Assembly: GCF_016903815.1 (NCBI RefSeq)
Contig: NZ_CP069973.1
Length of the DNA stretch: 64,000 nt
Direction: 5' to 3' (one strand)
Source of the DNA: Escherichia coli
Lineage (GTDB): Bacteria > Pseudomonadota > Gammaproteobacteria > Enterobacterales > Enterobacteriaceae
How positions within the stretch are numbered: position 1 is the first letter of the stretch; each line of letters starts with the position of its first letter. A program made the position numbers and the translations under genes. The notes under the pieces were generated by a model. The model worked only from the letters and a program-made list of their open reading frames with translations, did not search any database and was not told where the DNA came from. This document shows positions 39,146 to 59,840 of the stretch, piece by piece.

Positions 39146-40405
39146 ATGAATCTTACCGAATTAAAGAATACGCCGGTTTCTGAGCTGATCACTCTCGGCG
39201 AAAATATGGGGCTGGAAAACCTGGCTCGTATGCGTAAGCAGGACATTATTTTTGCCATCCTGAAGCAGCACGCAAAGAGTGGCGAAGATATCTTTGGTGA
39301 TGGCGTACTGGAGATATTGCAGGATGGATTTGGTTTCCTCCGTTCCGCAGACAGCTCCTACCTCGCCGGTCCTGATGACATCTACGTTTCCCCTAGCCAA
39401 ATCCGCCGTTTCAACCTCCGCACTGGTGATACCATCTCTGGTAAGATTCGCCCGCCGAAAGAAGGTGAACGCTATTTTGCGCTGCTGAAAGTTAACGAAG
39501 TTAACTTCGACAAACCTGAAAACGCCCGCAACAAAATCCTCTTTGAGAACTTAACCCCGCTGCACGCAAACTCTCGTCTGCGTATGGAACGTGGTAACGG
39601 TTCTACGGAAGATTTAACCGCTCGCGTACTGGATCTGGCATCACCTATCGGTCGTGGTCAGCGTGGTCTGATTGTGGCACCGCCGAAAGCCGGTAAAACC
39701 ATGCTGCTGCAGAACATTGCTCAGAGCATTGCTTACAACCACCCGGATTGCGTACTGATGGTTCTGCTGATCGACGAACGTCCGGAAGAAGTAACCGAGA
39801 TGCAGCGTCTGGTTAAAGGTGAAGTTGTTGCTTCTACCTTTGACGAACCCGCATCTCGCCACGTTCAGGTTGCGGAAATGGTGATCGAGAAGGCGAAACG
39901 CCTGGTTGAGCACAAGAAAGACGTTATCATTCTGCTCGACTCCATCACTCGTCTGGCGCGCGCTTACAACACCGTTGTTCCGGCGTCAGGTAAAGTGCTG
40001 ACCGGTGGTGTGGATGCCAACGCCCTGCATCGTCCGAAACGCTTCTTCGGTGCGGCGCGTAACGTGGAAGAGGGCGGCAGCCTGACCATCATCGCTACCG
40101 CGCTTATCGATACCGGTTCCAAGATGGACGAAGTTATCTACGAAGAGTTTAAAGGTACAGGCAACATGGAACTGCACCTCTCTCGTAAGATCGCTGAAAA
40201 ACGCGTCTTCCCGGCAATCGACTACAACCGTTCCGGTACCCGTAAAGAAGAGCTGCTCACTACTCAGGAAGAACTGCAGAAAATGTGGATCCTGCGCAAA
40301 ATCATTCACCCGATGGGCGAAATCGATGCAATGGAATTCCTCATTAATAAACTGGCAATGACCAAGACCAATGACGATTTCTTCGAAATGATGAAACGCT
40401 CATAA
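39146..40405 (+). CDS. rho: transcription termination factor Rho
   Basis: ORF 39074..40405; start at the ATG giving [24 protein letters not shown] (419 aa); Walker A PPKAGKT. Confidence 0.98.
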
Positions 40406-53187: not shown

Positions 53188-53264
<77 letters not shown>

Positions 53265-53321
53265 TTTAGTCCCGGCGCTTGAGCTGCGGTGGTAGTAATA
53301 CCGCGTAACAAGATTTGTAGT

Positions 53322-53398
53322 GGTGGCTATAGCTCAGTTGGTAGAGCCCTGGATTGTGATTCCAGTTGTCGTGGGTTCGAATCCCATTAGCCACCCCA
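53322..53398 (+). tRNA. hisR: tRNA-His (with extra 5' G-1)
   Basis: GGTGGCTATAGCTCAGTTGGTAGAGCCCTGGATTGTGATTCCAGTTGTCGTGGGTTCGAATCCCATTAGCCACCCCA; anticodon GTG. Confidence 0.97.
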
Positions 53399-53418
53399 TT
53401 ATTAGAAGTTGTGACAAT

Positions 53419-53505
53419 GCGAAGGTGGCGGAATTGGTAGACGCGCTAGCTTCAGGTGTTAGTGTCCTTACGGACGTGGGGGTTCAAGTCCCCCCCCTCG
53501 CACCA
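53419..53505 (+). tRNA. leuT: tRNA-Leu (long variable arm)
   Basis: GCGAAGGTGGCGGAATTGGTAGACGCGCTAGCTTCAGGTGTTAGTGTCCTTACGGACGTGGGGGTTCAAGTCCCCCCCCTCGCACCA; anticodon CAG. Confidence 0.97.
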
Positions 53506-53547
53506 CGACTTTAAAGAATTGAACTAAAAATTCAAAAAGCAGTATTT

Positions 53548-53624
53548 CGGCGAGTAGCGCAGCTTGGTAGCGCAACTGGTTTGGGACCAGTGGGTCGGAG
53601 GTTCGAATCCTCTCTCGCCGACCA
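53548..53624 (+). tRNA. proM: tRNA-Pro
   Basis: CGGCGAGTAGCGCAGCTTGGTAGCGCAACTGGTTTGGGACCAGTGGGTCGGAGGTTCGAATCCTCTCTCGCCGACCA; anticodon TGG. Confidence 0.97.
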
Positions 53625-55107: not shown

Positions 55108-56763
55108 TTAATCAGATTTAATCTGCGCGCGTGGTGGATATTTTTTCAGGATCTCCATATACGCGTGCATTTCGGTCTGTAGCGGTACACCCATTGGGAT
55201 ATGGCGCACGCCGATAGAGTCGCTTTCCTGCGGATCGGTGTACAGGTTAAACACCGACGATCCCGCCGTTTGCATTACTGTGCCGGTGAATCCACCCTGA
55301 TACCCGCTCTGGGTATACGCGTACGGTTGCTGGATCAGTACGTGATACTTGAACTCATCCATACGCACAGCAGCGAGTTTACCGTTGAGGAAGTAGTGCT
55401 CGGCCTTACGGTTAGACTGACCATTTGTTCCCAGGAAGAAAGATGTCTGGTCCACACCATCGATAAAGGTGGTTTTCGGTACTAAATTCGCTACTTTCGC
55501 CCCAGGATGCCCCGCCAGATCCAGTGCCGTAGGGAAGAGATCCGCCAGATCGACAATGCCGTCAGATTTACGCGGTTGGATCATGCCTTTCCAGTAAACG
55601 AAGGTTGGCACACGAACGCCGCCTTCCCATGTAGAACCTTTCGCACCGCGGAACGGCGTGCGACCGTGCGGCGGAACTTCGGCTTCCGGACCGTTATCAG
55701 AGGTGAACACAATCAGCGTGTTATCAAGCTGACCGTTTTTCTCCAGTGCTTTATACAGATTGGCGAAGATATCGTTCATCTCCACCATGCAGTCGCCGTA
55801 AGAGGTGCGCGCCGGAGAGCTACCCGCATATTTCGCATTTGGGTAGTTATCGAAGTGACAGCCGCGAGTGCCGTAGTAGAGGAAGAAAGGCTTATCGCTC
55901 TTCGCCATCTTGTCGAGGAACTTAACGCCATATTCCATCCAGCGTTGATCCAGGTCTTCCATATATTTCGGCGTAATGTCGGCAATGGCTTCCTGTTCAC
56001 CGCCGCGCACGGCATGAACGTCATCTTTGCTGAACGGCAGTTTTTGGATGTATTGAGAACGATCCGGGCTCAGGGCGACTTCCGGGTTGACGTGAACATC
56101 ACGCCATTCGGTATACATATCGGATACCGAGTTAAAGCCGCGGAAATCATCAAAGCCAACGTTCTGCGGCTGCGACTCTTTGTTTTCCCCCATATGCCAT
56201 TTCCCGATGGCCTGAGTGACGTAGCCCTGATCGTGCAGCAACTGCGGCAGAGTGGTTAACCCTTGCAGACCGCCCGGTTGCCCGTACATTGGCGGCATCA
56301 GAATGCCGTGGTGGATGGAGTATTGTCCGGTAAGAATCGTGGCGCGGGTTGGGGAAGAACTCGGTTGAGAATACGCCGAAGTTAAAATCAGCCCCTGGCT
56401 GGCAACGGCGTCGATATCTGGTGTAGGGTTACCCACCGCCACGCCGCCGCCGTTAAAGCCAACATCCATCCAGCCCACATCATCCAGCAAGAAAACAACC
56501 ACGTTCGGTTTCTTACCGGTTTTTTTCTCAAGTTCTGCCAGCTTCTGCTGGGTTTCTTTGTCTTGTGCAGGATGCTGCATCACCGGCATCATGTTGTCGG
56601 CAATAGTGGTCGCCGGTTTAACCAGATACTGGTTTGGGTGATCGTATCCGGCAAAGCCTTTGCGTGCGGTGGCGGTTGACGGGGTATCTGCTGCGTTGGC
56701 CATGAGTGGAAGAGCGGCGGCGACAGCCACAACAAGAAGTTTGGGTGAAAACGAAAATTCCAT
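55108..56763 (-). CDS. aslA: arylsulfatase-like protein
   Basis: 551-aa ORF with signal peptide and the sulfatase-family region near the N-terminus. Confidence 0.93.
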
Positions 56764-57187
56764 GCAAAATGCTCCGGTTTCATGTCGTCAAAATGTTGAC
56801 GTAATTAAGCATTGATAATTGAGATCCCTCTCCCTGACAGGATGATTGCATAAATAATAGTGATGAAAATAAATTATTTATTTATCCAGATAATGAATTG
56901 GAAAATCAGGAGAGCGTTTTCAATCCTACCTCTGGCGCAGGTGATATGTAAGGCGGTGATGTTATATCGCGTTGATTATTGATGCTGTTTTTAGTTTTAA
57001 CGGCAATTAATATATATGTTATTAATTGAATGACTTTTATTATTCATTATATATATGTGTAGAATCGTGCGCAGGAGAAATATTCACTCAGGAAGTTATT
57101 ACTCAGGAAGCAAAGAGGATTACAGAATTATCTCATAACAAGTGTTAAGGGATGTTATTTCCCGGTTCTCTGTGGCATAATAAACGA

Positions 57188-57394
57188 GTAGATGCTCATT
57201 CCATCTCTTATGTTCGCCTTAGAGCCTCATAAACTCCGGAATGACGCAGAGCCGTTTACGGTGCTTATCGTCCACTGACAGATGTCGCTTATGCCTCATC
57301 AGACACCATGGACACAACGTTGAGTGAAGCACCCACTTGTTGTCATACAGACCTGTTTTAACGCCTGCTCCGTAATAAGAGCAGGCGTTTTTTT
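57188..57394 (+). ncRNA. glmZ: GlmZ small regulatory RNA
   Basis: Sequence GTAGATGCTCATTCCATCTCTTATGTTCGCC...ends in hairpin ACGCCTGCTC...GAGCAGGCGT plus T-run; recognised as GlmZ; lies between aslA and hemY as in K-12. Confidence 0.9.
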
Positions 57395-58640: not shown

Positions 58641-59840
58641 TTATTCTCCTTGCGGCGCGGCTGCCGGAGTATCAGCTTGCGGTGCAGGTGCAGGTGCAGG
58701 TGCAGGTGCAGGTTTAGCTTCCGTTGTCCCCGCTGCCGGTTGTGCCAACAGGTTACGCACGCGAGTCTGCATCAGTTTTTCCAGCATCGCCTGGCTTTGC
58801 AGGGTTTCCGGGAGATCCATCGAGATATTTTGCTGGCTTAACTGGTCCACCTCGTTGAGGAACGCTTTGGTGGTGGCATCATCAGTATCGTAGTAAGCAC
58901 GTACCCAGGTGGAGACGTTCTCCAGCGCCTGGCGATAAGTCTCTTCCTGATGACGCGGTACGGCTTGTGCCGCGACCAGCAGGCGAGAGCGAATATTTTC
59001 GCGCAGATAGATATCCTGATTTGGCGCTAACAGCGGTACGGCGGTGTCATCACGACGGCGAATCGTAATGAAGTTGTCCATAAAGTTCTGCCAGCTTTTT
59101 TGTAGATTGATACGCCATTCGCTGATGGAACTGGAAAGCTCTTCACCGTCGGAATCCATCGGCGAACCATCGCTGTCATTATCGGCCAGACGCAGGTTAT
59201 CTACCTGATTTGAAAGCTGATTAAGCTTAAGGATGATGCCGTCATAATCCACCTGCGATACCGCAGAAAGGCTGGCGATATCATCGGTAATTGCCCGACG
59301 AACGGTAATCAGACTCGGGTCATTCATATCCGCCAGGCTGGCATCTGCACTTTTCAGCAACGCTGCAGCGGTCGTGACGTCTTGATCGCTCCACAGCTTC
59401 CGTCCTGCGAGTTTCACCAGAAAATCGGCCTGAGCCAGCAGCCAGGTTTTAGCATCGCTGCCGGAAATGGTGGCGACCTTTTGTTGGACTTCATCCAACT
59501 GTTTTGCCAGCGTTTCTTGCTGACGATTCGCCTGCTCAAGCTGTACAGCTTGTTGCTTGATAATGCCTTCCAGCTCAGCTTTTTGGCTCTCCTGGGCTTT
59601 TTGCAGTGCCGTCAGTTGATTAGCCAGGGCATCGCTGGTGGCAGTCTGATTGACGGCCTGTTGTTTACCCCAGCCATACAAACCGACGCCCGCCGCCAGA
59701 GCAATAGCAATAGCCACCGCGCTGAGAATCAATGCGGTATTGTTCTTACTCTTTTTTTCTGTTGCGACAGGTTGTGACGTGGTGTCCACGGCCTCCCTGG
59801 TCTCTTCAACCACGGCGGAGGTTTTTTCTTGTTCCGTCAT
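58641..59840 (-). CDS. hemX: HemX (putative uroporphyrinogen-III methyltransferase-like membrane protein)
   Basis: 399-aa ORF with an N-terminal transmembrane anchor, coiled-coil-like region and a C-terminal (Pro-Ala) repeat. Confidence 0.92.
58681..58713. repeat. tandem hexanucleotide repeat (GGTGCA)x5 inside the hemX 3' end
   Basis: GGTGCAGGTGCAGGTGCAGGTGCAGGTGCAGGT on the + strand encodes [10 protein letters not shown] in HemX on the - strand. Confidence 0.9.

Follow-up and report, generated by a model that had tools for sequence, protein, structure and literature searches.

The small RNA gene glmZ of Escherichia coli is preceded by a perfect 10-bp direct repeat, and the question raised by this locus is whether the repeat takes part in the control of glmZ or simply lies in its upstream DNA. 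An earlier note on this sequence had reported AT tracts consistent with IHF sites, had stated that glmZ depends on an upstream activator assisted by IHF, and had taken the whole for probably ordinary regulatory DNA. We examined the locus within a 64,000-nucleotide stretch of E. coli DNA (hereafter the window). The last of these suppositions is the one that held: the promoter and the spacer are already known and characterised, and the repeat, although real, stands in known, ordinary DNA and gave no evidence of a function. Very probably we are dealing with an ordinary σ70-dependent glmZ spacer, in which the repeat is an incidental by-product of mutation rather than an operator.

The aslA–glmZ spacer and its repeat

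The spacer extends between two divergent genes (Table 1), as the earlier note had read it. On the left, the open reading frame is annotated as aslA both in strain 7/2, where it is identical, and in K-12; on the right, the Rfam match defines glmZ, which ends with an intrinsic terminator detected by a terminator scan (stem at 57360-57389, then a T run) and is followed in 3' by hemY on the minus strand. The strong AT-richness claimed for the spacer was also confirmed, its GC content being 0.34 (34%) against 0.52 (52%) for the whole window. The spacer is 100% identical to that of E. coli strain 7/2, and 5,422 of the 5,426 complete E. coli genomes carry it once. An Rfam E-value scan of positions 56650-57250 recovered no RNA family besides glmZ, so that an additional sRNA or structured RNA in the spacer was rejected.

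Table 1. Features of the aslA–glmZ locus (window coordinates; negative positions are counted from the glmZ start, 57188)
Feature	Position	Strand	Description
aslA (arylsulfatase-like) CDS	55108..56763	-	551-aa ORF; the spacer begins on the left at its start codon
aslA–glmZ divergent intergenic spacer	56764..57187		424 bp, AT-rich
Least conserved spacer part, holding the repeat	56996..57125		mean pairwise identity 0.67-0.68
Repeat copy 1, ACTCAGGAAG	57086..57095	+	−102..−93
Repeat copy 2, ACTCAGGAAG	57101..57110	+	−87..−78
Genus-conserved block	57126..57163	+	−62..−25; mean pairwise identity 0.93 in 6 Escherichia species
−35 hexamer ATGTTA	57152-57157	+	within the genus-conserved block; mutagenesis in PMC3045617
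Extended −10, TGG + CATAAT	57173..57181	+	−15..−7; matches the published motif; invariant in the genus
glmZ sRNA gene	57188..57394	+	Rfam RF00083, 218 bits, E 9e-57, full length

A sequence search found the direct repeat exactly where it had been described: the two ACTCAGGAAG copies are exact and have a period of 15 bp. The same 10-mer occurs exactly at 40262 in the window, a copy unrelated to the pair of the spacer. When the spacer was shuffled 1000 times with its dinucleotides preserved, an exact direct repeat of at least 10 bp within 30 bp arose in 29 shuffles (2.9%) and, at any distance, in 160; two comparable near repeats exist elsewhere in the 64-kb window (24548 and 55512). On its own the repeat is thus only mildly unusual. 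The 53-nt segment that contains it occupies a median of one place per E. coli genome and a maximum of two, and a dispersed repeat element (REP/BIME, ERIC, MITE) was rejected on this single-copy state. Among the papers searched, none contains the sequence, and the earlier opinion that the repeat is not an assignable motif still stands. A second 10-bp direct repeat, ATATATATGT, is present at 57010-57019 and 57049-57058, 39 bp apart; it is of low complexity and limited to the haplotype of the window, both copies being substituted in K-12.

The glmZ promoter and the history of its upstream DNA

In E. coli K-12, glmZ has just one promoter, constitutive and dependent on σ70, with the sequence ATGTTA-N15-tggCATAAT (Göpel et al. 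2011, Nucleic Acids Res 39:1294; PMC3045617). In the window this published promoter lies at 57152-57181: ATGTTA, a 15-nt gap and TGG CATAAT, ending 6 nt before the +1 at 57188. The locus is the same in K-12, with a spacer likewise of 424 bp and identical −35 and −10 motifs. MG1655 carries ACTCAGGAAGTTATTACTCAGGAAG at the same −102 position, so that the repeat is identical to that of the window and lies at the same −102/−87 positions. Between −115 and −1 the two sequences differ by three substitutions, none in the repeat or the hexamers; position 57165, between the two promoter elements, is G in the window and A in K-12.

The experiments published for K-12 leave little role for the DNA where the repeat lies. 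Mutations of the −35 or of the −10 abolish the promoter, while a −40..+32 fusion has full activity, DNA upstream of −40 being dispensable (PMC3045617); these truncations were plasmid fusions assayed under standard laboratory conditions and medium. In the same work purified GlrR did not bind a glmZ fragment covering −424..+32 in EMSA, and neither ΔglrR nor ΔrpoN changed glmZ expression (PMC3045617). A 2014 review termed the Escherichia glmZ promoter 'apparently unregulated' (PMC4152352), and our literature search for later work on the E. coli promoter found nothing past Göpel 2011 and this review. Control by an activator and IHF applies to glmZ in Yersinia, Salmonella and the majority of other genera, and also to glmY of E. 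coli (PMC3045617, PMC4152352).

Our scans for GlrR, σ54 and IHF elements agree with these data. No GlrR site (TGTC-N10-GACA) was found at two mismatches or fewer between 56700 and 57200, and near glmZ there is neither a σ54 element TGGCAC-N5-TTGCW nor a TGG-N9-TGC; the sole σ54-like matches, with 2-3 mismatches, are at 56835 (+) and 57109 (-), both far from +1. The exact IHF consensus WATCARNNNNTTR is absent from the spacer, where five one-mismatch matches were counted against 1.9 +/- 1.4 expected from shuffles, one of them overlapping copy 1. The proposed IHF sites are therefore not borne out, and the dependence on an upstream activator and IHF, as stated in the earlier note, is wrong for E. 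coli: in this species glmZ escapes GlrR/IHF control, unlike glmY and most other enterobacterial glmZ. This corrects a tempting mis-annotation, that of assigning GlrR/IHF control to E. coli glmZ.

How Escherichia came to differ can be approached by comparing the window with promoters of the GlrR/QseF, IHF and σ54 type, which drive glmY in all Enterobacteriaceae and glmZ in Yersinia, Salmonella, Citrobacter and Enterobacter. The sRNA is homologous and starts at the same nucleotide, and the two kinds of promoter are still recognisably related at −16..−7 (TGTGCAATAAT in the window against TGTGGCATAAT). However, the window lacks a −24 element, TGTC-N10-GACA sites and an IHF consensus. Similarity to the Salmonella glmZ promoter is kept only from about −16 downstream; upstream of this point the sequence is unrelated to the σ54-type promoters and belongs to an insertion carrying aslB and aslA. 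Among the 120 glmZ loci found by scanning species-representative genomes for the glmZ start, aslA and aslB flank glmZ, as they do in the window, solely in five non-coli Escherichia loci (E. albertii, E. whittamii, Escherichia sp. E1V33 and two GTDB species representatives labelled E. coli). In Klebsiella oxytoca, Raoultella, Salmonella arizonae and Citrobacter koseri, it is a tRNA operon (Arg-His-Leu-Pro) that lies directly upstream of glmZ; in the window this operon is at 53188-53621, ahead of aslB. Since aslBA is next to glmZ in Escherichia alone, and the tRNA operon abuts glmZ elsewhere, aslB–aslA and the AT-rich spacer are an Escherichia-specific insertion between the tRNA operon and glmZ, which would have displaced the ancestral GlrR/IHF/σ54 control region. 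We also note that in K. oxytoca, Raoultella, S. arizonae and C. koseri the tRNA-Pro gene and its terminator lie upstream of glmZ at a distance of a few hundred bp at most, and that the loss of the σ54/GlrR region, which coincides with the insertion in Escherichia, occurred in K. oxytoca and Raoultella in its absence.

Such an origin would also account for the composition of the spacer. Low GC and a lineage-restricted insertion, the two features of an acquired spacer of the H-NS type, are both found here, and the K-12 aslA–glmZ spacer was identified by Genomic SELEX as a site for the RpoD holoenzyme and H-NS (PMC3946193). The spacer would be AT-rich because it was brought in with aslBA, and it is a published target of H-NS; IHF is not needed to explain its composition. 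On the aslA side, Shimada et al. 2014 gave TTAACA-18-TGTAAT as the best-match leftward promoter of the spacer. In the window these hexamers are at 57146-57141 and 57122-57117 on the minus strand, with a predicted start at about copy 2; the candidate −10, TGTAAT, departs from the consensus at position 2, where the conserved A is missing, and the outgroups show a weaker form of the motif.

Origin and loss of the second copy

Conservation within the genus is lowest in two parts of the spacer, and the repeat falls in one of them. Over six Escherichia species, the mean pairwise identity of the segment −115..−63, which holds it, is 0.68, near the minimum, against 0.90-0.91 for the aslA-proximal blocks and 0.99 for glmZ; the lowest 25-column windows (identity 0.45) are at 57057-57081, just upstream of the repeat. 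Within E. coli, the K-12-like and O157:H7 spacers are about 6% different overall from that of the window but keep the repeat unchanged. When the window is compared with K-12, the proximal 116 bp are 2.6% divergent and the flank made of glmZ and hemY 2.5%: the divergence next to the promoter equals that of the flank, therefore the invariance of the repeat does not need any special constraint. The distal spacer (56764-57072) is 7.1% different from K-12, in clustered patches, and aslA 4.5%. The conserved blocks, at 56907-56936 (0.91), 56937-56995 (0.83) and 57126-57163 (0.93), are dispensable for the glmZ promoter; they may serve the expression of aslA or the binding of H-NS or RNA polymerase.

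The five non-coli Escherichia spacers align with the window end to end, from aslA to glmZ, so that each copy of the repeat can be compared position by position. Copy 1 is partly ancestral, CTCAGG being present in four of the five outgroups (GCTCAGGAAAC, GCTCAGGTAAT). At the opposite, copy 2 is absent from all five lineages, the length of the segment being the same within 1 nt. At its position the outgroups have sequences unrelated to it (GTGTGTGAAG, GCGAACGAAA and similar; GTGTGTGAAGGG, GCGAACGAAAGA, GCGAGCGAGAGA, GCAAGTGCATGA). As five outgroups have an unrelated sequence at this place, copy 2 is derived and specific to E. coli. The earlier note had asked whether the repeat is conserved in relatives and acts on glmZ expression, and in essence both answers are negative: it is absent in related Escherichia, and its region is dispensable for the expression of K-12 glmZ.

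Compared with every outgroup, copy 2 shows 5-6 adjacent substitutions, each toward the sequence of copy 1, and these substitutions are in register with the shared flanks TATT and GAAG. In this comparison of six species, copy 2 looks like a templated, length-neutral replacement from copy 1, and it resembles the patches produced by templated multi-nucleotide mutation; such an origin is to be preferred because the changes are clustered and all match copy 1, unlike independent chance mutations. A search of RefSeq E. coli for the outgroup-type allele, which would date the origin of copy 2, gave no match.

Once formed, the pair is nearly fixed. With its two copies, the 53-nt segment shows 100% identity in 4,896 of the 5,426 genomes and coverage of at least 80% in 5,183; the 10-mers themselves form a perfect pair in about 90% of E. 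coli genomes. One exception is a loss of exactly one 15-bp unit, as in strain Z226-7. This one-unit deletion exists in about 180 of the 5,426 genomes and on two haplotype backgrounds: the exact one-copy allele is found in about 165 genomes with the haplotype of the window, including SMS-3-5 and strain ST648, and in at least 10 with the K-12-type haplotype. Because the one-copy allele occurs on two haplotypes, the deletion either arose at least twice or spread by recombination. TTATT, the stretch that separates the copies, is shared with the outgroups and is thus ancestral, therefore the two-copy form is older than the one-copy form. No three-copy allele was found among the 5,426 genomes.

The loss is exact to one unit, bounded by the repeat and recurrent, as for short direct repeats that are substrates of slippage. 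The locus differs in this from contingency loci, since it has just two copies and no expansion alleles in the 5,426 genomes. The loss of 15 bp turns the upstream DNA by 1.5 helical turns relative to the promoter; that successful lineages have kept the one-copy form speaks against an upstream activator dependent on helical phase. The one-copy allele could be used as a minor lineage marker. In E. coli FLI21 an IS1 stands in the spacer at about −135 from glmZ, directly upstream of the repeat; neither the proximal 134 bp nor glmZ is affected.

Competing explanations and neighbouring observations

Taken together, these data lead us to favour the following course of events. The AT-rich spacer would have arrived with the aslB–aslA insertion, displacing the ancestral GlrR/IHF/σ54 region and leaving glmZ to one σ70 extended −10 promoter that presumably needs nothing upstream of −40. 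In the stem lineage of E. coli, copy 2 would then have formed by a short, length-neutral templated replacement, likely through a template switch or a micro-conversion anchored on the flanks TATT...GAAG. From then on the pair may have behaved as a slippage substrate, one 15-bp unit being lost at least twice and the shortened form kept in whole lineages. Neutrality of the repeat is part of this reading; selection could also have produced its near-fixed identity, though the divergence equals that of the flanks. That the repeat owes nothing to templating, and is a non-functional coincidence of independent point mutations, seems to us quite improbable. Certainly a 10-bp near repeat appears in 2.9% of the spacer shuffles, two others exist in the 64-kb window, and the segment evolves fast; on the other hand, 5-6 adjacent changes relative to every outgroup, all exact to copy 1 and with the flanks in register, would require each independent change to hit the right base.

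If the repeat had a function, the 10-mers might be a tandem operator for some transcription factor, an E. coli innovation for the conditional control of glmZ or of the divergent aslA. We consider this unlikely. In its favour, the perfect pair is close to fixation in E. coli, an upstream activator could plausibly act from −102/−87, no allele with three copies was seen, the sequence does not recur in the genome (median of one place), and truncation data obtained with plasmid fusions under standard conditions leave room for a conditional regulation. However, all five sister lineages lack copy 2, and few parts of the spacer are as poorly conserved as this segment; a spacing of 15 bp places the copies on opposite faces of the helix, and about 180 genomes, of two backgrounds, tolerate the loss of one unit, a shift of 1.5 turns. 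Direct repeats of the OmpR/PhoB type are phased at 10-11 bp; here the period is 15 bp, and copy 2 does not occur in the five sister lineages. Besides, the −40 truncation is fully active (PMC3045617), and the literature search found no paper with the sequence. The related idea of a recent, E. coli-specific platform on which a factor would bind to control glmZ or aslA conditionally is very unlikely. Were it true, the one-copy lineages, e.g. SMS-3-5 and strain ST648, would be natural regulatory variants, and the reason why Escherichia glmZ appears unregulated would be reopened; nothing here points so. As for a GlrR (QseF)-type activating region with IHF bending on a σ54 glmZ promoter, its probability is next to nil. 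Such an arrangement does exist at glmZ in Yersinia and Salmonella and at E. coli glmY, and the one-mismatch IHF-like matches exceed expectation (five vs 1.9, one of them over copy 1), but the GlrR and σ54 motifs are not found near glmZ, the ancestral control region would have been displaced by the aslBA insertion, and the hypothesis was already refuted by the negative EMSA, the lack of effect of ΔglrR and ΔrpoN and the dispensability of the upstream DNA (PMC3045617).

Two further candidates were rejected. A small ORF of 40 aa with a TTG start (57026-57148) covers the repeat but is broken in K-12 and O157, where its frame meets stops (TAA TAA, then TAA) before reaching the repeat and no start codon follows them. 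The possibility that the spacer is a decayed copy of glmZ came from a 9-nt match, ACTCAGGAA, to +45 of glmZ in many other species; the local alignment is at the level of chance, 93-106 of 300 shuffles being equal or better.

The region +45..+55 of glmZ itself (57232-57242), in the first stem-loop, carries a lineage-specific substitution: E. coli reads ACTCCGGAATG, most Enterobacteriaceae including E. albertii ACTCAGGAATG, and four of the five non-coli Escherichia lineages, all except E. albertii, ACTTAGGAATG. In the search for the glmZ start, the pattern also matched contigs labelled Nostoc, Bacteroidetes, Lachnospiraceae, Dysgonomonas and Anaerolineaceae. A 279-bp contig of an Alkalicoccobacillus porphyridii assembly corresponds in essence to the E. 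coli glmZ promoter, both copies of the repeat included, and is probably an E. coli contamination. Finally, hemX (ORF 58641-59840, minus strand) contains within its coding sequence a hexanucleotide tandem repeat, GGTGCA x 4.5, at 58681-58707.
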